A stretch of DNA of 58,620 bases, the filler included, from Dugesia japonica (taxonomy: Eukaryota), in assembly GCA_001938525.1 (NCBI GenBank). It is 5 parts of 5 records of this genome, joined end to end, with 100 filler letters (N's around TTAATTAATTAA, not from the genome) between each part and the next. Parts side by side here need not be neighbours in the genome. Positions count along the whole stretch, not along the records: positions 1 to 14,639 come from MQRL01610105.1; 4 more parts are not named here. One strand, given 5' to 3'. The number at the start of each line of letters is the position of its first letter. The first letter of the stretch is position 1. Positions 283 to 49,585 of the stretch are shown in pieces. The position numbers and the translations under genes are program-made. The notes under the pieces are model-generated. The model was not told where the DNA came from, searched no databases, and worked only from the letters and a program-made list of their open reading frames with translations.

Positions 283-1359
283 ATTTCCAACCAAAATATT
301 ACTTTTAAATTTCCCGCCAGAAGATTTTTTGTGAATTTCCCGCCAAAAAGATGTTTTTTTGAATTTCCCGCAAAACGTTTTTGGAATTTCCCACCAAAAA
401 ATAACAAGACTCCCCTCTTCCCCGTTCCAAAAATATGAAAATCCACCATTCCCAGTGAAAAAATATTCAAAAATACATCATTTTTTACAAAAATGACATT
501 ACTTTCATCTAATTCATCAATTTAAGTAATATACATCATTTTTACTTAAAATAAAGATTTCAAACCCTTATGACGTCACACATACCCGTCAGAAAAATTT
601 CAAATAAATATCCAAAATTCCAATAATTAATTGTCTTTCCACACATACCAGTCTGCCCCGCCCAAAAAATTTTTTAAAACTTTTATACTACTTACAAANN
701 NNNNNNNNNNNNNNNNNNNNNNATAAAATAAAAAATCAAAGCACATTCGACATACAAAATCTTCTCCATCACAATACCTCTCAAACAAACTATCAAACAA
801 CAAATTCCAACAAACACATACAAACCTACAGCCTTCCTAAAAATCGACCCACGATAACTCATACGAGTGGGCTAATGCGCCACCATAGTTGTAAGACAAA
901 CCATCCATCCAATCTCATAAGTCTTTTAGACAATATATAGACTAAAGTTTTGTCCAACATCAACCAAATCATAAAAACTTTAAAAAACTTATTTCCAAGA
1001 TCTCCAGCTCCTCCTTCTCATTTTCCCAACTCTTTCACACACACACACACACAAAAACTCAACTTGACCTACTTTTTAAAAACCACCTTAACAACGAAAC
1101 ACACACAAATTTTAAAATTTAAAAATACTCTTACAAACAAACAGCCAGGATCAAAAAAACTGATCCGATCAAAAAAAATTTTGATCCGATCAAAAATTTT
1201 TTGATCCCAAAAATCTTGGAAAAAAAAACCAACCCAAAAAACATAGCCCAGCGTAACGTGTTTCCAAGCCCCCCCCACCCCCCGGTCCCTTCGATAACAG
1301 CAAAATATGAAAGTGGGCTGAGAATCAGGCTGGGGCTAATGCGCCACTATCCCCCTACT
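283..1359 (-). mobile_element. ~1.1-kb Polinton-type terminal region, copy 1 (end at 1359, element extends leftwards)
   Basis: Its reverse complement aligns block by block with 7813-8750, e.g. TATGACGTCA, CCCACGATAACTCATA, CAATATATAGAC, TTGACCTACTTTTTAAAA and TGATCCGATCAAAAA. The minus strand starts AGTAG GGGG ATAGTGGC. AG-starting termini are typical of Polintons. Confidence 0.65.
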
Positions 1360-2224
1360 CATATTTCCTTGCAATTTTAATCAATTCTTTATTAAATTTA
1401 TTCTCTTCAGTAATTGGTAGTCTTTTATGGATGATNNNNNNNNNNNNNNNNNNNNNNNNNNNGAAGAAATCCTTGTATGTCTGTTCAGGTAAAGCTACCA
1501 ATTTATTTGTTTTGTCTGTTTGACTGATGATGATTGATTTTTAATTCTTTATTTCTTTAATAATTTAGTTTTCATTACTTTAGTTAGAAAAATATTAGTA
1601 TACCCTATTGTACGCAATTGAACATGATTCCTTATCCTTAACCTTATGATTATCCAGATTTAACTCTTTTACTTAAAGATTTATTATCATATTTAAAGGC
1701 CATCATTACTAATTATTATCACTGGTTCGAGTTGATTTTCATTACGATTCTTGGTTAAAAGGCACTTCATGAGGAAGTGGTGTTTTTTACTGCTTACCAG
1801 AAAAGGTGAAGTTATTTTAGTTCAAAAATCATTATTTTAATTTATCATGAACGAAAAACAATAGTAATCTAACTGGGGATTACTATTATGAAAGACTTTA
1901 ATTTATTATTTTACTTACCACCCAATTACCGAATGCTGATATGATTTTAGCATTATTTAATAGCAAAAATTCCCTTTATCAATAATCATTTTGTGAGCTT
2001 AATACAGCTATTGGTATCAACAAAATAAGAGATTTGAAAAGAAATAGACTGGATGACACATTAAACTACTAAAATATTAAGGAATGAATACCATATCGTT
2101 TTTAACAAATATATTTTAATTCGTATTTATAATTTCTCAATTGCCGTATTTTTCACGAGTCCCTGATTTTTCGATTAATAATATATATATATATATATAT
2201 ACATTAAATTACAAATTACATCAA

Positions 2225-3258
2225 TCGAACAAAAACTAACGTGGACTGCATCTCGATCTGGAGCAAACACTTAGGAATCCTCACGACGAACCGATAAAAA
2301 TTCTTCGATTATCTTCCGTAGATTCTTCTGAATCGGAAACTGTTGCATAGATTTATTAACGAGAGACTACATTTAGTTAATTTTCTAGCTCGAATTTAAA
2401 TTTCGCTTCAAAATTTTTGATTGTCTTCTGAAATTGAATCGCTACTTGTACCAGTTTTTCCTTACACCACCATTCTTTCTATTGGTTAATATGCATCGTA
2501 TGATTTTTCTAACGCTCTTATTGGCTAGATTGTCATCTGATTTCTTCTTATTGGTCAAAATTTTGGAATTCCAAACTTGCTGGAATCCAATTGGTTAACC
2601 TTAAAACCTTTGTAACTTCTTTCTTGGTCTTGCAACGATTATCTAACTTAAAATTTCGAAATCTGTAATTTTTTCATGACTAGAATTTTCTTAAACACTA
2701 ATTTTGTTCTTACTGGGAAGTCCTCGTTTTGTCATATTTTCATAAATTTAATTTTATTTTTATAATGAATCATTTTAATTCGTCTGATTCATTTTATTTA
2801 AAAAATTTATTATTTATTTTTCCTTTCTTCTTAATTTATTGATTACAATTTTTCATTTCTAAGTAGAAATTTAATCTTATTTTAATTTTCTTCAACAATT
2901 AATTTGTTTCATTTTTCTTGTTAATTATTAATTTCATTCTATTTTCTTTCCTTCATTTATTAAATGACTTTCTTTCGTTATTAATGGCCCTTTCTTTGTT
3001 TTCTTAGTCTGTTTACATTTTTATCATTTCCTTTCTACTTTGGTTTTATAATTTTCTTGTTGTGATAGCGGATTTTGCTGGTCGTTTCATATGTTTTAAT
3101 ATCTTAATCTCTGCTTTTCTTTCATGATATCTTTCATTGTCTGGTCTTTGACCTTCTATTTCCTGTTTTCTTAATTTCCCTTTCTTATATCTTCTTTTCC
3201 GATTTCTCCCTCACCCAACGCTATTATTTTTTCTTATACCAGGTGTTTCACCTAAACA
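2225..3258 (-). mobile_element. LTR-like dispersed repeat, copy A
   Basis: Homologous to 46065-47271: both share AACTAACG...CGATCTGGAGCAA, TACACC...TCTATTGGT and the terminal GGTGTTTCACCYMAACA. The minus strand begins TGTT. Four CCAAT boxes lie at about 2480-2595. Confidence 0.6.
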
Positions 3259-3354
3259 ATTTGATAAATTGAAATAATTATTTGATTATTTAAAATAATT
3301 ATTTGATTAATTAAAATAATTAAATAAAATCTTCAAATAACCAAAAATAATATT

Positions 3355-3672
3355 AATAGTTAGATGTGAGAGCACTAGACCAAGTCCCCTCCCACACACA
3401 CAGCAACACCATAAAATTCGCACCCAAATATACACCTACACTTTCCACACACAATATCACACAACCCCAATACCCACAAAAAACATTCAAACAAAATTAA
3501 AACAAAATTTAATATTCCCGCAAAAATTTAAATAACAATAAAAAAAATCCAAATTTGATCCGATCAAAAATCAATAAATTCACGATAACCAGTACACCAA
3601 ATCGTAGACCAGGACCAGGTTATCAGTTTTCGCTAGGGGTGACTTTGTCCAGTGCGCTCACATCTGACTACT
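3355..3672. mobile_element. 318-bp MITE with ~37-bp imperfect TIRs starting A(G/A)TAG and a 6-bp TSD
   Basis: The left end reads AATAGTTAGATGTGAGAGCACTAGACCAAGTC and the right end (reverse complement) reads AGTAGTCAGATGTGAGCGCACTGGACAAAGTC. AATATT flanks both sides (3349-3354, 3673-3678). The internal TTTGATCCGATCAAAAA is shared with 283-1359. Confidence 0.8.
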
Positions 3673-3908
3673 AATATTCATTTCAATAAATCAATTTGTC
3701 GTCAAATTTATAAATTAATACTCAAACAAATTAAATTTATTTGTGATAATCTCAATCAACTTTTTATATTGATTGTATAAAAAATATGGAACAGTGAGTT
3801 CTGATAAATCAGAAGAACAATAACTTATATTAATATTGAGCAATATTGATTGAATAAAATCAGATAACAATGTAAATTATACACAAATAAATTAAATATT
3901 CTAATAAA

Positions 3909-4886
3909 TTAATTTTTTTTTAAATAATCAATAAATAGTTCTGATTTGATTAATTGTTCTGCACTCGGTCTCTCATCTGGATTCGTATTCAAACAAGAAT
4001 TGATAAATCGATTCAATTTATTTGAAATGGGAAAATTCGTTTCAAGTTCGTATTTTGTACTAAATGGAATATGCGAAATTAGCTGATTTTCATGATGAAA
4101 TTGATTTTCACCTATATAATTAATAATTAAATAATAAAGAATATTTAAAAACTATTTAACCTGCTACCATCTCAACCATCACTTTACCAAATGACAAAAT
4201 ATCGATATTCTCTGAATATCTCCTTTGTTCTACTTTGATCAATTCTGGTGCCATGTAACCAATTGGTTCAGGTTTGTACTCTTGGTTTACTTGTACACTC
4301 GTCAATACAGTTTTATATTTTGATTTTCCGAAATCAATTAATTTTGCATGATTGAGTTCATCGATAACAATATTATCAGCTAGACAACACAAATAATAAA
4401 ATATTGTGCAGAGTAAAATCAAACATTTTATATCTCGATGAATAATTCCTAATTTATGCAATTCATTTATTTGTGTCAAGATTTCATATGAAATTTTCAC
4501 TATTTCTTGTTCCGATAAATATTTCACTTTGTCCAAATAAGATCTGAGAGATTCCTGAATAATGTCAAATACAAATATTATCAACATAATTTCAATAGTA
4601 AAATAAAATCAACTCCAGACAAATATTCCATGCCAATGCAAATGTTTTCTCCATCTCTGAATAATCCAGAATAATTCATGATATTTCTTGATGAATTGAG
4701 TTTGGAATAAATATTTATATCTCGATAGAGATCTTCATCAATTCTGATTTGTTTTTTCAAAGGAATTTGCTTGTTGGATTTTTTATCTCGACAAACATAA
4801 ATTCTAGCAAATCCTCCTCGACCGAGAGATCTCAATATCTCGATATCATCGATGCTGAATGTATAAATTGTATTTGCCAATCACAT
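3909..4886 (-). CDS. Ser/Thr protein kinase, 4 exons (possibly pseudogenised: ATG is followed directly by TGA)
   Basis: The motifs GRGGFA, PLK, MEYL, HRDIK, DFG, YMAPE and NPDERPSAEQL join in frame after removing GT-AG introns at 4555-4613, 4380-4424 and 4112-4160. The stop is at 3909. Confidence 0.9.
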
Positions 4887-5182
4887 TTATCTGATTGGTT
4901 AATTAATTTAACAATTTGAAATGATTACAAATAATATTTTATGTTGAGAGAACATTTTTATTTATTTTATCTTTCACATCAAACATTTTCATTCTATTCT
5001 TTTCAAACTAACAAAATTTGTTCATTTTTTCAAAATAATTCTTTTAAAATCATAGAAAAATTGTTGAAGACAAACAAAAAGTTCAAGAAACAAATGGACA
5101 ATTTAATTTGAATATTCTCATTGAAATTTATTAAATTAAAACAAATAAATCAATACGAATATCACAATGCAACATAACAAAC

Positions 5183-5945
5183 TCACCTCTTCACAATTTC
5201 TATGATAAAATCATCTTCAAATTTGTCTTCATCATTTAGTTTGTGATCTCCTCCTGGCTTGATGCAATACAAATGTTTCATGTCCACTTTGAGTCTTGTA
5301 GAAATTGATTGTTTTGCTTTGATTATTGTTTCTGGTTTGTAAGGGATAAAATTTTTTATATATTTTCCATTCATTTGTATTTTAATTGTAAATTTATTGA
5401 TTGTACTGAATAAATATATTCAATAATTCATAAATTTATCCAATCAAATATCACCATTTATCAATCCTCTTATTCAAATCAGAATCACTGAAAGATCTCA
5501 ATAAATGTTGATTCAACCATCTTAATGAAAATATTCATCATTGAAATATCTCACAATCATCATTGCATCTCACAATTTCAGCCAATATCGCCAATCATTG
5601 CTGGAATCAATCAAATATTTCACAAAATAATCCAAAGCATCGATTCTATCAANNNNNNNNNNNNNNNNNNNNNNNNNNNNNNNNNNNNNNNNNNNNNNNN
5701 NNNNNNNNNATTTATTTGTTTTATTGTTGATTTGTTGTCTAATAATAGAAAAATCCCACAATGCAGCACGTCTGAATAACACAAATCAATTAATAATATA
5801 AATATTTTTCAATTAAATAATATTTTTATTTAATCGATAAATGGAATAATCAATATCAAATGAGGGAGGACAATCATGGCTGCAAATATCATTTGATAAA
5901 TTATTATATTTTGCAATGATATTTATGATCAATCCTGTCAACATG
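5183..5945 (-). CDS. Multi-exon gene (5' part unresolved or decayed) ending in a ubiquitin-like domain
   Basis: Exons ...WRYWLKL | WLNQHLLRSF...IDKC | TINKFTIKIQMNGK...ETIIKAKQSISTRLKV...KLNDEDK join in frame through ~50-nt GT-AG introns. The last exon has a beta-grasp-like pattern. An N gap lies inside the gene. Confidence 0.45.
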
Positions 5946-6480
5946 TTTGTATGTGGTCAATATTGATCTGGATTGATCACAAATATGCATGTTCCAATGA
6001 TTTGTGCCACCACAATGTCATCCATCATTCATTCAATCAAACTTGCATCGCAAATTGAAAATATTGATAAAATATCCTCACAACACTAAATGATCAATCA
6101 ATAACAAATCAATTGTGTCACACAAATATCAATCTCACTCATTCTCATATAGATTCATCACAAATCTCAAATAATCATTACAAATATCTATAATGCGATA
6201 AGTCATTTCAAAAGAAAATAAATTTATCGAATTGAGAAATGAGGAGGGGAAATCTGACAAATTTTTATTCAATTTGTTATCAATTGTATCATTTGATGAG
6301 ATAATTTGCCTGCAATAAATTATAATTGATTAATTGTGAAATATTTCCATCAATCAATCACTTGATTTGATCAATTAAAATTGCTAATTTTTTTTTTGTT
6401 GATTTATTTTTGTTATTATCACGAATTTGATCAATACTAAATGCAAAATAATCAATCAATAATCACAATGCAATCAATGC

Positions 6481-7137
6481 TCACAGCAAGTATCCATCAA
6501 CCCAATTTTTGTTATGCCTATAGCAGCATTTATCAAATGTATTATCGATCTTGTTTCCTTCTTCATCATCACATCTATTCACAAATCCAATTAATAAATT
6601 ATACAATATTCAAATTCACCTAATAATCAATTTATAATTTTGATTTGTATCAATCTCAGTGACAATTTGATCATTTCTCATTTGTTTGCCATCTGTATTC
6701 CAAATATTGATTATTTCAGAATAAAATATTTTTATTATTGTTGTGATTGTTGAAATTGTATCATTCATTTTCGTAATCAAATGTTCACTATCATAAATGC
6801 CTCCCCAAATGAACACATCAACAATGAGATCATCTCTACAATAAGTGAAATCAATCAAAAATATTTCATTTACATCGATTTTTTACTTTCTCAAATAATT
6901 CTCAATTTTACCAAACCAAATTTCATCATTTTCACATATTTTGTAATGTTTTATTGAGTTATCATCAAATAAAATAATATTTTTATGAATTAATGTAAAA
7001 TAATCTTTTGCAAAATTTCCATTTCCATGGAGAATCTCATCTAATTTATATTTTATATCTTCCACCATCAAACATTCATTAATATGAATTCCTATTTTTT
7101 CATCATTATTTTCTCCATTTATAATAAATAATTTCAT
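6481..7137 (-). CDS. Tandem ubiquitin-like domain protein, 3 exons
   Basis: Exon 1 (MKLFII...VEDIKYKL...LIHKNIILFDDNSIKHYKICENDEI) is a Ubl pattern. An intron (gtaaaaaatc...ttgtag) joins it in frame to a second Ubl-like segment (NDTISTI...DGKQMRND). A short third exon ends at TGA 6481. Confidence 0.6.
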
Positions 7138-7425
7138 TTATCAATATTAAATAATCTGAAAGAAACAATCACATTTGTATATTGATAAAATATTAATTAA
7201 ATTTTGTTAAAATTTTTAATAATACTTCTATTGTTAAAACAATTTTGATATAAATAGATATAAAATATTCATTATAACAAAATGAAATATTTTAATTTTT
7301 TAATTACAATTTAATGAAAACTTATTTAACTACACTTATTTTTATAATTGCTAATATTTTAACATAAATTAAATCATATTAACTTATATATATGATTGTG
7401 TGTGTGATCTTTAATATATTTTGTT

Positions 7426-7656
7426 AGTAGTTTTAAAATGGGCTGAATCGGCCCCATGCTATTTTTTTCATTTTTTCGCCGTACCCAAAATTGTCACTTT
7501 TACGGGTTTTCTGTTCCATAGGAGTAAAAAAATATGAAACGTGTTAAAATTAGGAAATTTAAAAATAAAAATAAAAATTATGAAAAATAACATTTAGAAA
7601 CGGCTCAAAAATGATAAAAACAGTACAAGGCCGATTCAGCCCATTTTAAAACTACT
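7426..7656. mobile_element. 231-bp cassette bounded by perfect 28-bp inverted repeats starting AGTAG
   Basis: AGTAGTTTTAAAATGGGCTGAATCGGCC lies at 7426 and its exact reverse complement at 7629-7656. There is no TSD. Confidence 0.8.
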
Positions 7657-7812
7657 TTACTTTTATAAATTTACATTATTTTTAATAAATAAGATAAATA
7701 ATAATAAAAAGTTATTTAAATAATAAAAAAAGACATGCCAGCGCTACGAAGAAATAATAATTTCAATTTACATCCAATTATAAGGAGAAATAGGATAAAT
7801 AGATCGCCCCCT

Positions 7813-8750
7813 AGTCGATAGATAGTGGCACACGGGCACAATTTTTTTGGGCACAATTTTCTAAATCTCGGAAACACATTACGCTTGAGCTGCGTTTTTT
7901 TAGACATGATTTTTGTGCTCGTATCAAAAATTTTTTGATCGGATCCAATTTTTTTTTGATCGTATCAGTTTGTTTTATCCTGAAAGTGTATGTGTGTATT
8001 TTTAAATTTTAAATTTTGTGTGTGTTTGGGTTGCAAAGGTGGTTTTTAAAAAGTAGGTCAAGTTGAATTTGTGTGTGTGGTTGTGTGTGTGTAATACTGG
8101 AAAAAACGAGGAGAAGGAGCTAGAGATCTTGGAGATCATTTTTTTGTGTTTTTGAAGATTTGTTAGTGGTTGGACAAAAATTTGGTCTATATATTGTCTA
8201 AAGGACTTATAAGTTTGGATGGATGGTTGTCGTTACAAGGGTAGTGGCACACGGGCACAGTCATATGAGTTATCGTGGGTAGATTTTATGGAGGCTGTAG
8301 GTTAGTATGTGGTTGATGGTTTGATGGAGAATTAATGTAATTGGGAAGATGTTGGTTGTCGAATGTGCTTTGATTTTTTATTTTAAGAGCTTGAATTTGA
8401 TTGGTTTATTTTGTAAGTATTATAAAAGTGTTAAAAAAAATTTCGTGAGGTGGAGGTTGGTATGTGTAGTGAGAATTAATTATCGGATTTTATAAAATTT
8501 ATTTGAAATTTTTCTGTCGGGTGGTTATGACGTCATAATTTTTTGAAATCTTTATTTTGGTTAAAAATGCTGTATTTTGCTTATATTGATGAATTTAATG
8601 AAAGTAATGTTATTTTAATATATTTGGTTATTTTTTCAGTATTTTGAACAGGGGAGTGTTGTTTTTTAATATTTTCGAACGGGGAAGAGGGGAGTCTTGA
8701 AAACTGTTTTGGCGGAAAATTCAATAAAATATTTTGGTTGGAAAATTTCC
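7813..8750 (+). mobile_element. Polinton-type terminal region, copy 2
   Basis: Starts AGTCG ATAG ATAGTGGCACACGGGCAC and is the inverted homolog of 283-1359. The homology stops where the next AGTAG cassette begins (8752). Confidence 0.65.
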
Positions 8751-8751
8751 A

Positions 8752-8975
8752 AGTAGTTGTTAAATGGGTAGGATGACACCTATAGCATTTTTTTGGATTT
8801 TTTCACCATGTCCAAAATGGTTGTTTTGGTGGGTTTTTCCATTTAATGAAGGAAAACCCAAAATTTGAATCAATTAGTTAAATTTATTAAATTAAATAAA
8901 TGGAACCATGCAAAAAACGGCGAAAACATCCAAAAAAAACTCCACAAGTGCCATCCTACCCAATGAACAACTACT
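8752..8975. mobile_element. 224-bp cassette bounded by imperfect 28-bp inverted repeats starting AGTAG; probable left end of the capsid-encoding Polinton
   Basis: The left end reads AGTAGTTGTTAAATGGGTAGGATGACAC and the right end (reverse complement) reads AGTAGTTGTTCATTGGGTAGGATGGCAC. The ~65 bp downstream match the ~65 bp after 7656. Confidence 0.7.
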
Positions 8976-9299
8976 ACACTTTAAAAAATTTGCATTATTT
9001 TCAAAAAATAAGATAAATAATAATAAAAAGTGATTTAAAATGATAATTTAAATAAAGAGAATAATACATTATACTATATTTAGAGTCTCCCATGAGGGAC
9101 TTTATTTTTAATAACTATGTACAATTCAATTAAATTTTCGTTTACCACTTATATATTTTAAATAATTAATGAAAATAAAAATGTGTTACTATATTTAGAG
9201 TCTCCCGCGAGTGACTCTATTTTTAGTAATCATATAATTTTTTAATCAATTTAATTGGTTAATGAGTTTTCAAATAAATATTATAATAAGCTTAAGAAA

Positions 9300-10571
9300 A
9301 TGGCTACATCTGAGTAAAAATCCAAGCTTAATTTGAATTATAATAAAGAATTTAAACATGATATTAAGAAAAGCGATATATTAAAAATTTCTCCAACATC
9401 TAGTTCTATTTCGAATTTAGATAAAGACATGGTTTTCCAATCTTTACAATCTTCAAGTCCTTTAGATATTTGCAACGCACGAATATATTATAAAATTGAA
9501 ATAACTCTTAATACAGATAAAGATGATATAACTTTAGAAAATAATTTCTTTCCTAATTTATTTAGTAATATAAGATTGAAAATATTTTCAACATAAGTAG
9601 AATCTGTTTTAAATCTAGGAGTATATTCATCGATGATAAACTTTATTTTAACTGATTCTGATTATAAAAAAGAATAAGGAAAAATGACTTTATGGATTCC
9701 AGATAACAGTGCTGGAACAAATGATGTTACAGGAGAGGATATTAATACTGGTTATTATAAAAGAAAATTATTATATAATACCACAGAGAAATTTGAAGGA
9801 TATTTTGATTTAAAATATTTANTCGGATTTCTACAGAATTATGATAGAGTTATACATAATGTATGTATCAAATTAATATGCAACAGACAAGTAAAAAACA
9901 AATTTCTATTTTATGGAGCAGACAAATTAACAGCAAAATTAAAGTTAACAACGATAGAATTACATAAACCTGAGTGGACGCTTAATCCAAGATCAGAAGT
10001 AAGACTATTAGAGAGATTAAATACAAATAAATCTATATATGCAAATTATTTAAATATAATTTGTTCTGTTATATATATGGGTGAAGGATCAACATATTCT
10101 TTTAAATTAGCAAATTTAGCTTATAGGCCAAGATATATTTTAATTGGTTTTAAAAATACGGATATTTCTTTTCAAAAGAATAATAATTTATTTATAGTTA
10201 CAGATGGAACCAGTAGTTTAAAATCGATACAAATACAGTTAAATAATACATATTATCCAGTCAACAGAATGGTGTTTAATGTAGCAAATAACGAAATGTT
10301 ATTTCTTTTTAGTTCATATGTAAATTGCTGAAAAGAATTTAAAGTCAAACCACAACTTAGTTTACAAGATTTCAATAAATTATATCCACTATTTTGTATT
10401 GATACGTCAGCACAAGACGATAAATTGGCGATTAATAATGTTGATGTAACTTTACATTGTACAAAAGATACAGGTTTCAAAGCTAAATTATATTGTTTAA
10501 TTCTTGAAGAAAAGAAAATTGAAATGAGATTAAGTGGAGGAAAAATAGGTATAATAGAAAATGTTAGATGA
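9300..10571 (+). pseudogene. Polinton/adintovirus double jelly-roll major capsid protein
   Basis: Motifs include LENNFFPNLFSNIRL, LWIPD...NTGYYKRK, GFLQNYDRV, RPRYILIGF, QIQLNNTYYP and YPLFCIDTSAQDDKL..NVDVTL. There are several premature stops (9596, ~9677, 10331). Confidence 0.8.
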
Positions 10572-10594
10572 AATGCCTAATTTTTATAAAATGA

Positions 10595-12102
10595 ATGAAC
10601 AAAATTGGTATTGTAATGTTTGTAATTCTTCTACTTTACTTAAACATAAAGCTAGACATGAAAAAAGCAGATAAACATATTAAAAATCTTAATTCTCCTG
10701 TTGAAAAAATAATTATAAACCAATCAAATACATCATCTACGATGACTAATCGTAAACTAAAACAATTAGATAAACCCATAATTAATAAATTTCCTTGGGA
10801 GAAAACTGGTGGAGATATTCAATCTTCTAAAGTTACTTCATTATTATTAAAACCGTTTACATTTGAAAAATATCCTGGTGAAAGACATTTATTTAGGCAT
10901 AATTATTCAGGAACAAATACAAGATTAGATATTAGATTAGATGAAAATAATAGTCATCTACCAGGAGAAGAACCAATAAATAAAGTTCATTCTGCAACAA
11001 GTAAACACGATATTGCATATAAATCAAAAGATTTAAGAGATAGACATATTGCTGATGTAAATTTAATTCATGATTTAAATAATATTGAAAATTCTTCATT
11101 TAAAAAAAAGATTCAAAAAGCTTTAGTTAAATTAGCTGTGAAAGATAAAATATTAGTTGGAGGAGGATTAAATAGGTCTGCGGTGTCACAACACCTAAAC
11201 TCTAGAGTTGCTAAAAATATAGCTAATCAAAAGATTATTGAACAGGCAATGCAAGAACGTATAGACAAAGATGATAATACTACTAAAATTATTGAACCTC
11301 AAGATGATCAAATAAATTATGCAGCCGAATTACATCATGAATATAGAAAAACAAAAAGATTTTTAAAAGTACAAATACATAATAAAGATCACACATGGCG
11401 ATGCGATATTGCAGATATGGTTGAAAAATCTAATGATCAGGAAAAGTATAGATATATTCTAGTTTGTAAAGATTTAAATACAAGATATGCTTTTTGCGTT
11501 CCAATGATAAGAATCTTTAAGAGAAGCTTATGAAAATATATTTGAAGAAAATAATAGAATACCATATTATATTTGGTTTGATAAAGAATCGGCAATAAAA
11601 CCAAAATAAATTTCTCAATGAGAATAATATTCAATTATATCACACAGAAAATGAAGGCAAATCAGATTTTGCTGAAAGATTAAAAAAAACTTTGAAAAAT
11701 AAAATGTTTAAATAATTTACATCAATTGGGAAACATGAATGGAATAAAGCATTATTAGATAAAATAGTTAATGAATATAATAATGCAATTCATTCAAGTA
11801 TTAAGTTATCGCCAAAAGAAGCATCAGAAAATCCTGAGAAAATAAAAGATATAATTAATCTACATAATCACGAGAACTATAATATAATGAAAAAACAAAA
11901 GTTTCAAATAAGTAATAGAGTAAGAATATTCAAATATAAAAATAAATTTGAAAAAGGATATACAACAAAATTTACTAATGATATTTTTATAATAACTAAA
12001 ATTTATCATACTAAACCAATTATATACGGAATAACTGATTTAAATAATGAAGATATATTAGGAAGGTTTTATGATAATGAATTAATAAAAACTAATTTTT
12101 AG
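10595..12102 (+). pseudogene. Parvovirus-VP1-type phospholipase A2 domain fused to a Polinton rve integrase
   Basis: One ORF carries HNYSGTNTRLDIRL...EPINKVHSATSKHDIAY...RHIAD and then AAELHHEYRK...HTWRCDIADM...YRYILVCKDLNTRYAF. After frameshifts come YHTENEGKSDFAERL, YNNAIHSSIKLSP and the C-terminal RVRI..YKNKFEKGYT..GRFYDNEL. Confidence 0.88.
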
Positions 12103-12110
12103 GTGAATTA

Positions 12111-12896
12111 CTAAAATAAATCTTCAATAATTTCTTCTTTTTCCCGGTCTAAATAAATATAATTATATTTATCTTTCCAATGATTTATAATAAAATTATC
12201 AAATGTCATTTTATCTGGTTCTATATTACTAATTAAATCATGATAAACCATATCTTTATCTTTTTTATTTAATTTGAAAAATATAAAACAATTAGAATTA
12301 TTTCTAATTGAATTTTTATCTAAAGCGCAATAAGTTTGAGAGATATAAATAACATAACAATTATTATGTCTCCCTCTACCAAAATATGATTTCTGAATAT
12401 CTTGATTTTTCATATTCACCATATCGTCAAATATAACTAAATTCTTTTTTATTTTTAGGAAGATTATCACAATAAATAATATCTTCTGGTTTATTAGAAA
12501 ATGTAACATCAACTTTATTTTCCTCATCTATATATTCATTTTTATTTGTTATATCAGAATTAATAATATTTTTTTATACCATTCAACAATACTATACGCA
12601 GTTTTAACTTCATCTGGTATTCTATCTTGATTATTAAATATATTTAAAATAGCTTTCTGAGTTAAGTTATTCTCTAAATCTTCTTTTAATATTTGTAATT
12701 CAACTTGATTTATAGTTGTAGAATAAAATATTAAATTGTTATAATCCATAAAATTATCAGCTAATAACATCTTCATTAATAATACATTCTTCCCACAACC
12801 AGAAAATCCTATGATTAATAATCTAAAATTATTCGGTAAAATTTTATTATTAAATAATGTTTTATTTTTATTTCATATCGGTAAATCTGCAGCCAT
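12111..12896 (-). pseudogene. A32/FtsK-HerA-type DNA packaging ATPase
   Basis: Walker A RLLIIGFSGCGK, Walker B LVIFDD, and GRHNNCYVIYISQ and IRNN motifs. It has a premature stop and frameshifts. Confidence 0.9.
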
Positions 12897-12915
12897 TTTA
12901 TAATTTTTAAAAATA

Positions 12916-13478
12916 ATGACTAATATAACTGAAACTGAATTAAAAGAATTAATAGATTCTAATAAATCTAAATCTGTTTTAATAAATAATGAAAAATATT
13001 GGATTGGTAAGAAAATTAAAGAAACAGTTAAAAATGAGGAAACTAAAGAAGGGGGAATATTACCGCTTTTAGCTTTGATTCCTTTTTTGCAAAAGCCGCA
13101 GTTGTTGTAGGCGGATTAGAAGCAGTAGCGGGAGGAGTAGCAACAGCTGTTGCAAAAGCTAGAGAAGCTTCAAAATTAGGTGTCGAAAGACAAAAGGTTG
13201 AAGAAGAATTAAAGCAATTAAAAGAAGCAGGAAATGAAACTGTTCAACCATTTAAAGGAAAAAGGATTGTTGAAAGTTATAAAGGTAACGGAATTTATTT
13301 AAATCTTTATCAAGGAAAAGGTGTATATGATTTTATAAAGAACTTAATTAATCAATCAAACTTGCCTGATTCAGTAAAATCAGTAATAAATGAAACAGGT
13401 AAAAAATTAAAATTAGGTGGCATTGTTAAAATAAAAGAATCAAAACATGGTTTAGGAATATAAATGAGACCGTATTAA
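12916..13478 (+). pseudogene. Adenovirus pX-like core/membrane-active virion protein
   Basis: EGGILPLLALIP is followed, after a frameshift, by AAVVVGGLEAVAGGVATAVAKA. The C-terminus has GNGIYL, GKGVY and GLGI*MRPY repeats. Confidence 0.6.
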
Positions 13479-13565
13479 GTTAATATATATTTAAAAATGT
13501 ATGAAGATAGAATTACATTATTAAAACAATTAATCAAAAAACAAGATAAATATAATAATAAAGAA

Positions 13566-13605
13566 AGTAGGTAAATAGTAGCACACGGGCACAATTTCTA
13601 AATAC
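13566..13605 (+). mobile_element. AGTAG-type element end of the same subfamily as 7813
   Basis: Reads AGTAG GTAA ATAGTAGCACACGGGCACAATTTCTAAAT. It cuts off an ORF that starts at 13497. Confidence 0.6.
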
Positions 13606-14639
13606 CCCCTCCCTCAAAATCAATCAATTGATCTAGCCCGACATGCTCAAAGGATTGACTAGTAGTAAGCCGACTGTAAATAACACCGACCTGAAAAGGT
13701 TTCAAGAATTTACAGAGGAATTCGGCCAGGAAGGCATGTAAAAATTACATAAAAATAAATGAATGATCATTTTATTTGTTAAACATAATATTTTGTCACT
13801 GTGATTTTGTGATCCCGATCTTGTTCTATTTGGGTCGATATTGAAAGAGATCAGTCCTGTCCACTGATATCCAATATGTATTCAGCCTTTCGATATATTC
13901 AGATTGTTATTAGTAGAGTACAAGTTTAGCAATTACAATTATCACTGGAACAGTTGCTGGAACAGTTGCTGGAACTGACAACTTATTCATTTTCAATAAA
14001 AGTAAAAAGCGTAGATCAAAACGATTTTCTATAGTTTCTTGTTAGTTATCCAAATTTGCGGCAGTAGAGTTATCTAGGGTTTATCAAAGCCCTTTAATTA
14101 GAAATATTGTTTTGTTTTATGTTAATCGTTTTGGTCTGGGTTTCATAATCAAGACCCAGAACTCCGTTATTGATAATTCTCTTAGATTTTCTGCCTCCTA
14201 CTCCATATCAATTTTTGCTAATTTACTCGATCTATTTCTTCAACCACAATGTTTTCCTTTATCTTTCCGCTTATGAATTGAACTCAATCCATGATGAGTG
14301 TCCAGACTCTTGTATTGTTCTTCTCATATTGCTCTATTCATAAAAAGTTTCCATTAATACTGCACTTTTTTCTATTTTTCTTGTGATTTATCCTGTTTAA
14401 TGCTGGTGGTGAAGTTATTCAGTCTAGACTTCATATCGGCANTCAACATTATTCACAATAAATTCTACTTCACTTATCTAAAATGTATTAAAGATAATGT
14501 TTGGTCTTGATAATAGAAGACAGTCTTGCTACTTTAAACTCCATCTCGTCATTCACTTTATCCTTTACAAGAATTTCAATTCAAAACTTTATTAAAACAA
14601 ATAATTTTTCTTTTAAAATTCTTTTTGCTTTCTGAACGT

Positions 14640-14739
14640 NNNNNNNNNNNNNNNNNNNNNNNNNNNNNNNNNNNNNNNNNNNNTTAATTAATTAANNNNN
14701 NNNNNNNNNNNNNNNNNNNNNNNNNNNNNNNNNNNNNNN
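14640..14739. other. Artificial scaffold linker
   Basis: 44 N + TTAATTAATTAA (stop codons in all frames) + 44 N = 100 bp. Confidence 0.97.
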
Positions 14740-14774
14740 ACATGTGATTCAATGAAACCAATGTGTTTAAGTAA

Positions 14775-15575: not shown

Positions 15576-16268
15576 CTAAAAAAGAAATACACTCCACTGG
15601 GTTTTGAATAAATTATTTGAAAATTTTCAAAGGTATAATAAAAAAATACAATTTTATAATTTTTTTGAACTTTTATGAATAGTATTGAACACCACGCACA
15701 AGCATACATACACCACTGGGGTACTCATATAATTGTAAATTAATTAATTTTTTAAATTGCAATTAATTTTTTAAATTGTTACATATATCAAATAAATACA
15801 TTATTTGCCATCATATTTCTGATTTATTTTAGCGATTAAGAGTAAACAAATAGTCGATGAATTAACAAATAAATATTATTTGCAAAATTATTGGTTTAAT
15901 TTTGTTTGCTTAGCTAATCGACAAAATGGAAATAGGTTTGTAATTGTTATTAATTTTTAGTTAATTGAAACTGAGCAATTCGACATTTAATCTCATCATG
16001 TATAACTCAATATTTATAATGATTTTAATATTTGAAGCAAATTAACAAGTATGTATTTGTATTTATGCTAATAACAACCAAATTTTATAAATTGAGTTAA
16101 ATGGATAATCAAAACATTTGGTCATGCTATTGAAAATATGTACTTTTTTTATATTTTGCATAAATTAAATTAATTGATGCAGTTAAACAAAGTGAAGTAG
16201 TATTAAGCAATGTATTAAAATATAGATTTATATAAAATGAAGTTGAGAAATGATGATGTTTATAAAAT

Positions 16269-17710
16269 TGATTTTCGACAATTTTTAGTTGTTTTATGGA
16301 GATTTATGTGATTTATTAGTATTTTCGGTAATTTTAAGGGTATTGTGGGTCTTCATGAAATTTAAGGACTTTTAGAGATTTCATGAAATTTTTAGGGGTT
16401 CATGGGGTTTCATAAAATGTAAAGATTCATGAATATTTCATGAATTTTTATGAATTTCAGGGGATTTATTTTGGTTTATAAGAGATTTCTAAAGGTTTTA
16501 TAATGTTATTTTATGTGATGTTATAATATGTTCAAAATTAATTTATTGGGACTTTAAACTGGTTTTAAGGATTTTACCGAATATTTAATGAATATTTAAT
16601 GCTTTTCTGGTGTTTCAGTGAAATTTAAGGATTCAGAAATTTCAGCGCTTAAATCTGTTTTTATATTTTTCACGATTCTTTTAGAATTCTTGGTGATTTC
16701 AATAGTTTATGGGATTTATTGTGGTTTATAAGAGTTTTATAATGGTATTTTATAAACGTTTCATATGAGGTTATAATTGGTTTAACATTGTTTTATAGGG
16801 TTTCACACGGGTTTAAATGACTACATTTATTATTTTAATTATTATTTTAATTTACAAGTGTAATATTATTATAATTATTATTAAACATTTAAAGAAGGAT
16901 ATTTATAGAAAACCATTAAAAAATAATAGAAAATTACGTAAAAGTACTATAAAACCACGAAAAAAACATTAAAACATCATATAGAATACCGTTAAAAAAT
17001 CTTTATAAATACCCCCAAAAACACCTAAAAATTCATGAAAACAACCATAAATCCCTGAAATTCTTGAAAACTGCTCTAAAGCCATTAAAATTCTCGAAAG
17101 CCACCGTAAACCTCTTATAATTCATAAAAACACCATAAGTCATTAAAAAATTCATGAAATATCCATTAATCTTTACATTTTATGAAACCCTATAAACCTC
17201 CTGTAATTAATGAAAACACTATCAATCCTTTAAAATTTCCAAATAAGTTTCTGCAAATCCCATAAATTTCATGAAATCTCCATGAATCCTTACATTTTAT
17301 GAAACCATCAAAACCCCTTAAAAATTCATAAAAACTCCAAACCTTCATAAAAATAACCAAAAAATACCAATAAATCTCAAAGAAATCCATGAAACTACCA
17401 CAAATCCTTGAACATCCCGAAAAATATCAACAAATCTCATAAAATTCATGAAATCTTTGAGAATCTTTAAATTTCATGAATTTTTCGATAAATCTGAAAA
17501 TATCTGAAAACCACATAAACCCCTTAAAATTCACAATAAATTTCAATAAATTCCATACATTTCAAGAAATCTCTATGAATCCTTAAATTTCATGATGACA
17601 CACACTACCTTTAAAATTTAGGAAAGACCTCACAATTTCCTTAAAATTACCGAAAAATACCAATAAACCACATAAATCCCCATAAAACAACTAAAAATTG
17701 TCGAAAATCA
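16269..17710. mobile_element. Foldback-like element with long inverted arms made of short degenerate repeats
   Basis: The left end TGATTTTCGACAATTTTTAGTTGTTTTATGG is mirrored by CCATAAAACAACTAAAAATTGTCGAAAATCA on the right. The left arm is GT-rich, the right arm AC-rich and the centre AT-rich. TTTCATGAAA recurs throughout. Confidence 0.8.
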
Positions 17711-17729
17711 CATATATCCATTAAAATTC

Positions 17730-20170
17730 ACAAAATACCCATTTCGGAGAATGGAGACAAAAGATTGAGATAGTTACAAAAAGAACAGAACCACAGTGCT
17801 GGACATGCTAGAGTTATGGGCATAAAAAAGAGATTGTCCAAAAAATTCTCATGTGGAAAGTTGAACTTGTCACAAAAAAGGGCATTTAAGTAGATATTGT
17901 CCAGACATGAAACCACCAAAAAGCTTTGGGTGTGGAAAGATTGGCCATATCAGAAGGATGTGCACAGAAAGTATATTTGGAGATGTAAAAGATCAGGTCA
18001 CAGAGCAGAAGAATATTATTCGAACATTAGTAAACCTAGACTAGAAGAGAGAAGATACAATTTTAAAAGCGGAAACAATTAAAAGATTGGAGTTATACCA
18101 AACCAATTCATGCCATTTAAGAAGAATTTGATGACGAGAATGAAGAGAGATTATCTGAGAGCATAATAAAAAATGAAGATCCAAGAAGAGAATACTCAAA
18201 TGACAGGGCTTCATTAGTAGAGGAGTTAGTTGGAGCAATTCATTAAACGAGTTAAAGTTTGAATATCCGCAAGAGGCCGAGAAACAATGTTAGAGAAAAG
18301 CGAGGAAAGATTGCATTACGCAAATAACAGCTCATTGGAAACGATTGGAAAGATACGTGTTGAAGTTGTAGTTTCAGAGGTGTGCAAGGAAGTAACATTT
18401 ATAATAGTAGAGAAATTAATACCAGATCTAATTGATGGAGTGGATTTTGAGGATAAGTTTGAGTAAACATCAATAATCATCGAGAAAAATTGGTTTGCAA
18501 CATGTATGCAAAAGTTGGAAGACAAATACAGACGGGTGAACGATTGAGAGATGCAATGTCGATTCTAGAAATTAACAAAGATCATAGATTGACTACAATT
18601 ATTCAGAATAATGAGGATGTCTTTTTGACGGATAAATGGAACATTGGATGTACACACTTAACGAAGCATTGAATAATCACTAAAGAAGGTCCAATCAACA
18701 TAAAACCGTATCGCCAATCAATAAATTTAGAGGAAAAGATTGAAGAGACCATCAAAAATCTATATGATAATGGTATCATCCGAAAGTGTATTTCTCAATG
18801 GAATACGCCATTAATCTATGTTTAGAAAAAGGAAAAAAAGATATACGATTATGCTTAGACTTTAGACAGTTCAATGCAATAACAGAAAGACAAGCGTTCC
18901 CTATTTCAAATGAAATGATAGATGGTTTAGAGGATACGGAGTATCTTAGCTCAATAGACTTGGGAAATACATACTACCAAGTGAAACTCAGTGAAGATTC
19001 TCAAGAAAAGACGGCTTTTTCGACTAAACAAGAGCAATTTTGTTTCAATAGAATGCCTTTTAAAATTGCAGCAGCACCAGGTACCTTCCAGGAAACGATG
19101 AATAAAGTAATCGAACAAATAAAAGGAGCGATGGTTTATCTAGATGATATTCTCATATTAACTGAAACAAAGAAGCAACACTATGAAATAATAAATAAAT
19201 TATTAACAGAAATTAAGAAGGCTGGTCTAAGAGTTAATCCGGAGAAATGTCAATTCATGCGAAAGGAGATAAAATATTTGGGACAGGTTATCAGTAAAGA
19301 AAGTGTCAAAACACATCCAACTAAAATATAAGCAATTTAGAACTTTGGTAAACCAAAATGCGTTAAGAAAATGAAAAGCTTTTTAAGAATTTGCAATTAC
19401 TATCGAAAGGTTATTGAAAAATTATTCAAAGAAAGCTAGATCGCTGGAACAGCTGTGTAAGTGGGCCAAATAACAAGAAAATTGAATGAGCGAATGAATT
19501 AGAAGAAGTTTTCAATAGAATGGAAGAAGCACTAATGATGTCTCCAATATTATGTTTTCCAGATATAAATAGAGGATTTATTTTAGACACGGATGCGAGT
19601 TTCGAATATAGCAAAGTGACAAGAATGGGCAAGAAAGAGTAATTGCATATGGGTCACACGCAAAGACGAGTCATGAGAAAGGATAGTGTACTACGCGAAA
19701 AGAATTGCTCGCAATTTACTATTTTTGTATTAATTTCAAACATTACTTATTTGGGAATAGATTTCTCCTCAGAACAGACCATAAAGCCATCACCTTTATG
19801 CTAAATACCAAGAAGCCGATTAAATCAGTTTCAAACCTGGATTAATTATTTGAGCAGTTGAGATATAAAATTGGAATATAGAAAAGGATCGCTTTATACA
19901 AATGCGGATATGCTGTCAAGGAATGAATGATGTACATGTGCAAAAGGTCTAATGTCACATGCAGATCCCAAATGTAGAAAATTAAAAACAATGATGTTAA
20001 ATACAGTAGATATTCAAGGAAAACAAGTCAATTTTGATGATAATGATGAAGGAACATGGATACCTGATGATAAAGTAGAAGAGGTTATAATGAGGATACA
20101 TCATCTTTTGTGTCATACTGGAGCACAAAAAGTAGCAGCGTATATGAAGCATAAATATAAGAAAAAATAA
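17730..20170 (+). mobile_element. Decayed Ty3/Gypsy LTR retrotransposon (gag knuckles, RT, RNase H, start of integrase)
   Basis: Motifs include CGKIGHIRRMC, WRCKRSGH, RLCLDFRQFN, MPFKIAAAPGTFQ, VYLDD, LDTDAS, RTDHKA and IHHLLCHTG. There are many stops and frameshifts. Confidence 0.95.
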
Positions 20171-21305: not shown

Positions 21306-21345
21306 AGTAGAGGGATAGTAGCAGTAAAGAACAGCACACATTTTT
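21306..21345 (+). mobile_element. AGTAG-type element end truncating the pPolB gene
   Basis: Reads AGTAG AGGG ATAGTAGC AGTAAAGAACAGCAC. I could not identify the other end. Confidence 0.5.
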
Positions 21346-22319
21346 TTGGGAAATTTTTTATAGGAATCCGGGCAAACCGTTCATGTTGTTTAAATAATAA
21401 GAAAATTTAAAAATTTTTATATCAATTTTTTTATGGGAATCCAGAGCATCAAAAATTTAAAAAATAATTTTTTCAATTTTTACAACATATAGTTATTTTT
21501 AGATATATCGACTCAGAATTTTACGGCGATCATTTTTGGTTTTCCCAGTATTTTGCACAAGATTTTTTCGAAAATATAATTTCTTCCCAGAATAGGTCCA
21601 GAAACTGTCTATTCGATAGAAAATTTTTTGCTGATTCTAAACATGTTCACCTAAAATCGCCAAAGCTAATACTTGATTAAATAAATGAAGTTTTGTGGTG
21701 AAAAAATCTCAAAAATCAGAGTTTAGTACTCGGAGCTCTGTGCACTGAGAACTACTATAGACTCAAATTTAGTATTACTTTACTCAATAGAAAAACGTGA
21801 CTGTACAAAATTAAAATATCGTCTCGGGAAAAATGTTTCCTAACGAATATGTACAGCCGCATTCCCCAAATTCGGTGACATTTTTCGAAAATATCAAAAG
21901 TACCTCAAAATTTATTGAAATTTATACTATTCGATAGGAAAATTTACGGTGAGTACGAATAACACGGTTAAAAATCAACAAACTTTATACATAAAGTTAT
22001 ATAGAAAAAACAAGTACTTTATTTGAGGATCCCTAGTGTCATTAAAAATAATAAAAACATACTATAAAAACTTAATAATAAGATAAAATCATTTTTTCAA
22101 AGTAAAAGATTTATTTAATAAAAATCTGATCAAGCTGTCTATTGTTTGATTATTGAACTGTTTGAAAATACTGAAAAAATTAATTAATTAATTAATTTAT
22201 ATTTAATAAATAAAATCTCTGGAATGGTGAACATGTTTATTTTGTGAAGATTCAGTCTATTATATACTCGGTTTCGATAATTTTGGTCAATTATTTACTT
22301 GGTTTAGGTAATACTGATC

Positions 22320-41820: not shown

Positions 41821-41967
41821 CAGTAGTCGTAGCATATATTATAAACCGTAAAATACGGAAATTGAATAAATCTTAATGAAATTAGTGACGAATTATTAGT
41901 CTATACTTTAATCGCGGTTCTTTACATTTTAATGAAATTGCTTATGGACTTAATACATATTTACTAA

Positions 41968-41996
41968 CATTCCCAGTGCGCTACTATCCATCTAAT
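41968..41996 (-). mobile_element. AGTAG-type element end
   Basis: The reverse complement reads ATTAG ATGG ATAGTAGCGCACTGGGAA. A second AGTAGT at 41822 coincides with the point where the Gypsy gag is cut off. Confidence 0.45.
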
Positions 41997-48790: not shown

Positions 48791-49485
48791 GTAAGCTTTC
48801 GAATTAACATTTATTGGTCAAATTAAAATCAAAGTTAGCGTTTCCTTGGCCTGTGGGCTATCATGGTTTCTTTTCCACTCCTCGGACAAGAACGGCAGAA
48901 GACATTACTGTCTTCTCCCGCTCGAATCCCCATGGAGTTTTTAAGCAAAATTTTAATAACCGAATGAAATATTTTATTTAAAATAAAATTTTTCTTACAG
49001 CAAAATATCAAAATTGTCGTTCTTCTTGTAAAATGAGTTTGGTATGCTCATCGGATCATCAATATCACAACTTGAATTCATTAAAAAATTTATTCAAACA
49101 AAAACTATGCTTAACACTATTTGTTTAAAATAAAAGCTTCAATCAAAGTTTTTTGTTTTTATTGATAATTGATAAAAATTCGATATTTCGACTTTGTCTT
49201 CGTCAGGAATTGACTTTTTTATTTTAAATGAATTTTGTAAAACGATCAATGGTTATGTCCAACAATTATTCCCGCAATAATTGCAATAATTGTAAAACTA
49301 TTTGTTTAATCAAACAAATTAAAATCCCGTGTTTTTATTGGTTATCATTTTTTAAAATTTTAAATGAAATTTTTATTTATTTATTTAAAATTTAAGAAAA
49401 ATTTTCTATCACGTTAAAATTTCATTTATTAAAAATTTTACTTTATTATTCCATCTTCATTTTTGAAATTTTAAATCGAAACTTT

Positions 49486-49585
49486 NNNNNNNNNNNNNNN
49501 NNNNNNNNNNNNNNNNNNNNNNNNNNNNNTTAATTAATTAANNNNNNNNNNNNNNNNNNNNNNNNNNNNNNNNNNNNNNNNNNNN
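49486..49585. other. Artificial scaffold linker
   Basis: 44 N + TTAATTAATTAA + 44 N. Confidence 0.97.

Follow-up and report, generated by a model that had tools for sequence, protein, structure and literature searches.

An exact inner copy of the terminal word co-varies with the end of a very high-copy, likely Polinton-class repeat in Dugesia japonica

Introduction

Polinton/Maverick elements begin with a 5'-AG terminus (AG..CT) and are flanked by a 6-bp target-site duplication. Current understanding of how Polinton ends are recognized, copied, and rebuilt rests on models, and the panhandle chemistry considered below derives from adenovirus and Polinton models. In Sleeping Beauty, a Tc1-like element with IR/DR ends, the direct repeats are sequence-sensitive transposase sites and are not identical (PMC7827188). 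In DIRS-1, as described in PMC7192593, an internal region is the template from which the extremity is rebuilt, which forces the two to co-vary.

Here, we analyze a stretch of 58,620 nucleotides of Dugesia japonica DNA (assembly GCA_001938525.1; five parts joined with filler), referred to as the window. A first-pass annotation had proposed that element ends in this window carry an internal copy of their own terminal motif and that the two sites co-vary between subfamilies.

Results

The repeat is represented by two copies, with the following features:

283 to 1359, minus strand: copy 1 of the repeat, with its terminus (AGTAG) at 1359; its inner end is undefined, with an assembly gap at 176 to 230
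1333 to 1347, minus strand: copy 1 outer word, at +13 to +27 from the terminus
869 to 883, minus strand: copy 1 inner word, which repeats the outer word exactly and in direct orientation at a distance of 464 nt
7813 to 8750, plus strand: copy 2 of the repeat, with its terminus (AGTCG) at 7813; it adjoins another AGTAGT end at 8752
7823 to 7840, plus strand: copy 2 outer word, at +11 to +28
8242 to 8259, plus strand: copy 2 inner word, which repeats the outer word exactly and in direct orientation at a distance of 419 nt; summed contig depth halves at this site
7870 to 8228, plus strand: conserved arm between the words (82.5% identical in the two copies) that includes GT runs and a palindromic motif containing GATC; putative terminal arm
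8259 to 8750, plus strand: conserved part beyond the inner word (79.9% identity), with TGACGTCA at 8528 and a GGCGGAAA-type site at 8708

The two copies are inverted homologs, as first proposed (BLASTN, 371 to 1229 versus 7894 to 8736; 75.7% identity over 871 columns; E = 1e-175), and their overall likeness is ~80%. In both (n = 2 copies), an AGT(A/C)G end leads into a 15- or 18-nt word lying within +11 to +28, and an exact second word follows 464 or 419 nt inward in direct orientation. The 15-nt pair of copy 1 and the 18-nt pair of copy 2 are maximal exact matches, so the internal recurrence claimed for each copy holds to the letter. Matches to the words with three or fewer mismatches numbered three against 0.01 expected and two against 0.09 expected. 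Within the 10-nt core, copies 1 and 2 differ at positions 1, 4, 5, 6, and 9, and the same changes are present at the outer and the inner site. The chance of finding these five changes and no others at the second site is ~4e-7 at 20% divergence, which upholds the claim of co-variation beyond independent drift for the two phased copies that it covers. It is likely that one word is a copy of the other or that the two sites pair.

The terminal 10 to 12 nt of the element end are excluded from the repeated word, and in neither copy were these bases found beside the inner word, in either orientation. When the arm was aligned with the part beyond the inner word, the scores (21 and 26) were at the level of shuffled sequences (means, 25 and 26), and the word pair is therefore not part of a longer tandem duplication. 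An ordinary tandem duplication homogenized along its whole length, which the first-pass annotation had named as fatal to its proposal, was thus rejected, there being no homology past the repeated word.

Three further features bear on the class of the element:

3355 to 3672: complete mini-element; its inverted ends are of the AGTAGT type and ~36 bp long, and its 6-bp target duplication reads AATATT
9318 to 13463: neighboring block of decayed genes of Polinton/adintovirus type (double jelly-roll capsid, PLA2-rve integrase, and A32-like ATPase), given as context without implying that it belongs to the repeat
13566 to 13613, plus strand: third, truncated end of the same family, with the 10-nt core of copy 2

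All three ends of the family start with AGT, in agreement with the 5'-AG terminus of Polintons. Copy 2 and the third end adjoin Polinton remnants, and the gene block sits behind the AGTAGT end at 8752; no PolB was found among the frames scanned. In public contigs, the third end continues into the arm (joint 13603 to 7870, in two runs), and in the window it is followed by a host Vps4 exon at 13637. Its identity as a truncated end of this family rules out the idea that it represents a target duplication around the Polinton block. The mini-element is weakly homologous to the arm (nhmmer E = 0.0018), and each of its inverted ends contains a related word whose register agrees with that in the ends of the repeat. 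Comparison in this register gave 35/69 and 36/69 identities, and 111 other AGT(A/C)G starts gave a mean of 16.7 and a maximum of 35. An inner copy of the word is absent from the mini-element, and the inner word is therefore dispensable for mobility in cis. A pattern scan also placed end-like words at 21306 and 41996; as the pattern had been built from the three ends, the resemblance is in part circular, and neither word has an inner copy within 1.6 kb.

The repeat is likely, though unproven, to belong to the Polinton class, as the first-pass annotation had assumed. The register shared with a mini-element that has a 6-bp duplication and the adjoining Polinton remnants speak for this assignment. 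On the other side, the depth of the repeat exceeds that of most adjacent Polinton genes by a factor of 5 to 50, and nothing in the window corresponds to the opposite end of copy 1 or copy 2. The search of the window for a second arm or inverted end gave at best 5 to 6 mismatches in 16, the copies being truncated or interrupted, and no exact 6-bp pair flanking the three ends was present among the AGT(A/C)G starts scanned, the only duplication being that of the weakly related mini-element. No integrase relatives were found in viral contigs. Pattern scans for the conserved flanks in metagenome and viral contigs gave no matches apart from a single 16-mer that is probably due to chance.

In public assemblies, the unit at ~7813 to 8750 is a very high-copy interspersed repeat of an AT-rich eukaryote genome. 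Summed contig depth, which is not a copy number and varies more than 100-fold between single positions, climbs from 4.8k to 272k across 7813 to 7824, and the identity of the sequence flanking the ends drops to 30/69; both results bear out the view that these are element ends. The ratio of depth on the arm to that on the part beyond the inner word was 2.0, 1.96, and 2.9 (means of two bins each), consistent with the word closing a terminal arm that is present twice per element. Contigs that left the alignment just before the inner word numbered 106, 109, and 12 in three DNA runs, with an agreement of only 0.69 to 0.72.

The greater depth of the arm would also be compatible with the 400 to 450 bp between the words being a separate, site-specific insert that lands repeatedly in related end motifs and duplicates 15 to 18 bp each time. 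Target-primed retrotransposition usually leaves duplications of just this size, such an insertion would yield a perfect match at every event, and the stretch right after the outer word differs in length between copies 1 and 2. However, the arm and the part beyond it are equally diverged (82.5% and 79.9%), no poly(A) or repeat tail is present, and no empty ends were seen: each of the three family ends continues into the arm, and no word-to-word joint occurs among the joints listed (15 of 293 joints; 12 of 132 joint-letter rows). We therefore regard this explanation as unlikely.

A 2:1 depth would likewise fit the two LTRs of a nonautonomous retroelement, in which the arm would be the LTR and the inner word a primer-binding site whose primer, derived from the element's own end, is copied at each reverse-transcription cycle. 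In both copies, the inner word lies 4 nt after TTACA, and in copy 1 it starts with TGG. One joint, 8517 to 7819, leads in direct orientation from the inner part to an end (once in each of two runs; the sole such joint among those listed); it suits an LTR or a nested insertion better than inverted arms, and the 0.7 agreement behind 8228 leaves room for some unrelated flanks. Against this, all three ends begin with AGT rather than TG, the inner word of copy 2 starts with TAG, neither copy has a second arm within 490 to 590 bp beyond the inner word, the same end word stands in the inverted ends of the DNA-type mini-element, and ARAGORN predicted no tRNA-like genes in the window. TG..CA termini with two direct arms, as in LTR and TRIM elements, were thus not found; the direct-orientation joint leaves some doubt, but we consider an LTR origin quite unlikely.

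Two other candidates were considered. A Helitron 3' end was rejected: the word resembles one half of its hairpin, but no second half is present, and in public contigs the sequence continues into the arm. As a tyrosine-recombinase site, it would have arms of only 3 to 4 bp, and no excision joint is present among the joints listed.

Between copies 1 and 2, 293 of 355 positions are identical in the arm and 334 of 418 in the part beyond the inner word, where the sites at 8528 and 8708 are, we assume, CRE-like and E2F-like. The stretches on the two sides of the inner word are more conserved (56/64, 87.5%, and 43/47, 91.5%), whereas the core is identical at 5/10 positions at each site, as the first-pass annotation had stated. 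This is similar to the level in unconstrained stretches (15/30 and 6/13), and the core's surplus of change is modest (p ~0.03). In public contigs, the inner word and its core differ widely among copies. The core sequence is thus free, and the match within a copy is fixed.

As the core is more variable than its flanks, copying or base pairing is favored over protein recognition. The outer and inner words could nevertheless be two sites for one element-encoded protein (an integrase or a terminal protein-polymerase), with selection keeping the pair alike as subfamily specificities diverge; this is possible but doubtful. The geometry is that of Sleeping Beauty, in which a long arm holds an outer and an inner direct repeat, both of them transposase sites (PMC7827188). 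The unrepeated first 10 nt of the end, the related word in both ends of the mini-element, and the halving of depth at the inner word would all agree with such a design. However, a binding core is expected to be more conserved than its flanks, and here it is less so (5/10 versus 87 to 92%) and varies widely among copies. Letter-perfect pairs seldom arise from selection alone, the repeats of Sleeping Beauty being nonidentical (PMC7827188), and no cognate protein was identified.

If the match were read by base pairing, the conserved stretch around the inner word might be transcribed as a scaffold RNA; its variable segment would base-pair with the end of the element itself and guide an integrase or priming to that site, by analogy with the donor loop of IS110 bridge RNA. 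A variable segment that matches the element's own end and is embedded in the best-conserved stretches is the donor-loop pattern (PMC11208160), the six most variable bases are predicted to lie in a loop on both strands, and most of the few RNA reads that aligned lie on the repeat. Against this, folding was no better than that of shuffled sequences (z, -1.4 to +1.1), predicted pairs had changed on both sides in 1/63 and 0/18 cases (from two sequences only, and hence with low power), and no Rfam match was obtained even at an E value of 1. Only 101 of 10.5 million RNA reads aligned; they ran in both directions, 9/10 continued into other sequence, and neither starts nor ends piled up. These reads came from 6% of one cDNA run, in which short or nonpolyadenylated RNA could have been lost. 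Pairing without copying would, moreover, require ten paired substitutions in twenty positions. With z values near 0, no Rfam match, and sparse reads, there is no support for a structured guide RNA, and the noncoding RNA scaffold suggested in the first-pass annotation was not borne out; we regard a guide RNA as a long shot.

Discussion

We propose that the repeat is the noncoding end of a mobile element of very high copy number, likely a member of the Polinton class, with a word-bracketed arm of ~447 to 491 bp, and that the words are likely kept identical by templated copying and not by protein recognition alone. We give this reading as a whole a probability of roughly 0.35. Of the three mechanisms originally offered for the matched sites, terminus copying fits best and co-evolving protein sites come second, with the RNA scaffold unsupported.

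We infer that a full element carries the arm, including the inner word, in inverted orientation at each of its two ends. In the course of strand-displacement replication, the strand that is displaced would fold into a panhandle, and in a slipped panhandle the outer word of one arm could pair with the inner word of the other. Trimming and re-extension from the slipped pairing would then overwrite one word with the other, and the core might drift at the neutral rate in any subfamily while remaining matched within each copy. A point against templated copying is that a slipped pairing of 15 to 18 nt would have to compete with the full-length panhandle.

Such a word, free in sequence yet bound to match at two set positions, offers a ready-made genetic marker. 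One genome holds thousands of copies, and following in which order and direction the outer, inner, and opposite-end sites changed would reveal the template site and the step at which copying occurs. Were the match read by a protein, the IR/DR design would extend to a second transposase class and allow fast switching of specificity; were base pairing the means of reading, the match would amount to a self-addressing code, a novelty among eukaryotic DNA elements. In the furthest-reaching version, argued from the bridge RNA analogy, a eukaryotic virus-like transposon would recognize its own ends through a conserved scaffold RNA whose programmable 10-nt segment addresses the matching terminus, each subfamily mobilizing or replicating only itself. 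This would be surprising; if true, it would place a bridge-RNA-like self-addressing code in an animal Polinton.

Among known systems, IS110 bridge RNA (PMC11208160) also has a variable internal segment that changes together with the end of its own element, but it is prokaryotic and comes with a structured, expressed RNA and a recombinase, none of which was found here. Replitrons are eukaryotic transposons that likewise have short direct repeats at or close to their ends; those of Replitron-1 are ~6 bp long and lie at opposite element ends, and the elements encode an HUH transposase and are reported from the green lineage and protists (PMC10288648). Polinton/Maverick elements (adintoviruses) have terminal inverted repeats (PMC6431247 and PMC8502044). 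With them, the repeat shares the AG-type end, the likeness to a mini-element with a 6-bp duplication, and adjoining Polinton genes, and it differs in that a second end and a coding interior were not seen for it in the window.

IR/DR Tc1-like ends share with the repeat a long terminal arm that contains two direct repeats, one outer and one inner, with the terminal bases unrepeated. The Sleeping Beauty arm is ~220 bp (PMC7827188), whereas here it is 447 to 491 bp and the end is AGT(A/C)G; in the repeat, the core is the most variable part and yet letter-perfect within a copy. The outer flanks end in TG, CT, and AA and show no TA target duplication, and no Tc1 transposase was present among the adjacent frames scanned. 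The internal complementary region of DIRS-1 similarly mirrors the element's extremity near the terminal repeat. It is 88 bp long and contains the two extremities next to each other as a circle junction (PMC7192593), whereas here a single word of 15 to 18 bp omits the terminal 10 to 12 nt, the internal sequence does not contain both extremities, and no tyrosine recombinase or reverse transcriptase is linked to the repeat. The first-pass annotation knew of no such arrangement in Polintons, and the literature searched gave no description of an inner copy of the end motif in Polinton/Maverick elements. The layout itself has precedent, IR/DR ends and the DIRS internal complementary region being its close analogues.

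Anatomy of the repeat and its matched words

The repeat is represented in the window by two copies and a truncated third end, and the following features bear on it:

283-1359, minus strand: copy 1 of the repeat, terminus at 1359
7813-8750, plus strand: copy 2 of the repeat, terminus at 7813
13566-13613: truncated third end
3355-3672: complete mini-element with AGTAGT-type inverted ends and a 6-bp duplication
9318-13463: decayed Polinton/adintovirus block with capsid, PLA2-like domain, and A32 ATPase matches
13637-13738: Vps4 C-terminal exon (E 3e-10), directly after the truncated third end

Each copy consists of an AGT(A/C)G end, five variable bases, the outer word (a 15- or 18-nt motif), a variable-length stretch, a conserved arm, 13 variable bases, the inner word (an exact direct repeat of the outer one), and a conserved part of ~490 to 590 bp that closes with short GGCGG(G)AAA-type repeats. 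The distance from the terminus to the inner-word end is 491 bp in copy 1 and 447 bp in copy 2. The two copies share 75.7% identity across an alignment of 871 columns; the identities are 293/355 in the arm, 6/13 in the bases just before the inner word, and 334/418 in the conserved part beyond it. The flanks of the inner word are better conserved (56/64 and 43/47) than its 10-nt core (5/10). A minisatellite of 28- to 39-bp units (1-175), just inside copy 1 across an assembly gap, may be part of the element's interior.

The first-pass annotation had claimed that the terminal motif recurs exactly inside each copy and that the same five core changes at both sites are not independent drift. Both claims were confirmed: the matches 869-883 with 1333-1347 (copy 1) and 7823-7840 with 8242-8259 (copy 2) are maximal, and the cores differ between the copies at positions 1, 4, 5, 6, and 9, an identical set at the outer and inner sites (chance of the same changes at the second site, ~4e-7). 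This co-variation is observed in two copies, public contigs being too short to phase the words. Among the nine exact direct repeats of at least 13 nt (GC of at least 30%, 100 to 1500 nt apart) in the whole window, only these two word pairs exceed 40% GC. A longer tandem duplication is removed as an objection, since the sequences following the outer and inner words are unrelated. The third end, at 13566, carries the core of copy 2 with one mismatch in the constant part.

Class of element and genomic setting

AG ends and a 6-bp target duplication are features of Polintons. The ends of the mini-element align ungapped to all three ends of the repeat family, with 35 and 36 identities of 69 beyond the first five bases; 111 other starts gave a mean of 16.7, and one reached 35. 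A profile search also matched the mini-element weakly to the arm (E 0.0018), and no inner copy of its word was found within it. Polinton remnants adjoin copy 2 and the third end, and decayed frames adjoin copy 1. Judged from these sequence features, the repeat is likely of the Polinton class; the label first given to it agrees with the AG-type ends, the mini-element, and the neighbors, but no opposite end was found in the window for any copy.

The Polinton/adintovirus block contains matches to a double jelly-roll capsid (E 8e-12), to a PLA2-like domain (E 5e-7), and, weakly, to an A32 ATPase. Proteins related to the PLA2 one align over 10805-12099 and also have an rve integrase. Genes of the adintovirus type suggest that the DNA comes from an invertebrate animal (PMC8502044). 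Upstream of the capsid gene there is a direct repeat (9072-9114 and 9187-9229) whose two units lie 115 nt apart and share an exact core of 20 nt.

Two homologous ~225-bp units (7426-7656 and 8752-8975) are bounded by inverted ends of the form AGTAGT...ACTACT, and the same 85 to 100 bp come after each unit. Their arms match better within units (23/23 and 20/23) than between units (13 to 14 of 23) and thus co-vary too. Units at 21306-21756 and 41822-41996 have AGTAG-like ends and a related end word, with neither an inner word copy nor a target duplication; the latter unit is a short distance upstream of a gag-like zinc-knuckle frame.

The DNA of the window is eukaryotic and AT-rich (GC, 0.18 to 0.36 per kb) and comes from a gapped assembly; host genes in it are represented by a kinase and the Vps4 exon. 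The 100-nt N blocks with a central TTAATTAATTAA (14640-14740, 23849-23950, 33020-33122, and 49485-49585) are probably artificial spacers joining separate scaffolds, so adjacency across them is not trustworthy. Pieces of LTR-type retroelements are also present. Other observations include a 659-amino-acid open frame (28579-30558, minus strand) with no Pfam family and one relative only (55% identity), two inverted repeats, one of 222 nt (95%) and one of 133 nt (91%), that flank transposase-like fragments (52337-53398 and 51645-52196), and a degenerate tandem array of ~30-bp units laid out as a large inverted pair (16260-17730).

Copy number and variation in sequencing runs

Four of the 24 runs listed (three DNA and one cDNA) were compared with 7400-13750. 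Summed contig depth in the deepest DNA run was 4.8k immediately to the left of the end and rose to 272k and then 220k across the arm. It was 121k and 125k past the inner word, dropped to 11k in the bin that follows, and ranged from 0.6k to 45k over the remainder. This profile is that of an interspersed repeat of very high copy number whose left end is sharp. Depth over the arm was 2.0, 1.96, and 2.9 times that over the inner part in the respective DNA runs, which is a hint, as summed contig depth is no copy number. In these runs, 106, 109, and 12 contigs depart from the alignment immediately ahead of the inner word (agreement, 0.69 to 0.72). The consensus over the core changes from run to run and is not that of copy 2; the inner-word segment therefore varies widely among copies.

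The joints considered were the listed part (15 of 293 joints, 12 of 132 joint-letter rows, and 24 of 4382 loose-end rows), so absence from them is weak evidence. Among them, a junction of 13603 with 7870 across 21 other letters occurs in contigs of two runs and identifies the third site as an end of this family that has been truncated. Contigs of these two runs also connect 8517 to 7819 across 16 letters, placing an end behind the inner part, in direct orientation.

Origin of the match

The core is as variable as unconstrained stretches, yet the words match letter for letter within each copy. Templated copying between arms, which would keep the words matched, is ranked first (probability, about 0.35) because one mutation per change accounts for a core that is variable yet matched. 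The step would take place while a Polinton-type element replicates by strand displacement, between its two arms. Against such copying, the second arm was not seen in the window, the only relevant joint (8517 to 7819) is in direct orientation, and the mini-element is mobile without an inner word.

Ranked second, and rather unlikely, is a protein code of the IR/DR type, that is, Sleeping Beauty-type ends with an outer and an inner direct repeat in one arm. In most element ends the protein sites are the conserved portion, whereas this core is variable. The words are also letter-perfect within a copy, whereas the inner and outer repeats of Sleeping Beauty differ from each other and tolerate small changes poorly (PMC7827188). 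Third, and improbable, is site-specific insertion that recurs with duplication of the target; an LTR element that makes its own primer is very unlikely.

A conserved noncoding RNA scaffold guiding the element's own end had also been proposed, and the RNA tests did not bear it out. Folding z scores stayed near those of shuffles for nine short segments (-1.4 to +1.1) and for the 488-nt arm (0.2 and -0.9), two-sequence consensus folds had both-side changes in 1/63 and 0/18 pairs, and Rfam gave no match in the window at the gathering threshold and none for copy 2 at E 1. Mapping of the one cDNA run placed 101 of 10.5 million reads, mostly on the repeat and in both directions, with 95/101 less than 95% alike and no pile-up of read ends. 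These sparse reads fit read-through of other copies and leave room for a short or silenced RNA. An RNA guide is given as little weight as the LTR element.

Comparison with known systems

In the literature searched on Polinton ends, mostly open-access and without Repbase, and including PMC6431247, PMC10175614, PMC2836005, and PMC8532177, no description of an inner, co-varying copy of an end motif was found. IR/DR ends are the closest in layout. In logic the nearest is DIRS-1, whose internal complementary region serves as a template for the end and is essential for retrotransposition (PMC7192593); the DIRS-1 circle-junction feature is absent from the repeat. The bridge RNA donor loop (PMC11208160) is the analogue for an RNA guide, and the direct repeats of Replitrons sit at opposite element ends (PMC10288648). 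The word pair is a real, unexplained, and readily testable feature, and it is a variation on known end designs rather than a demonstrated new system.
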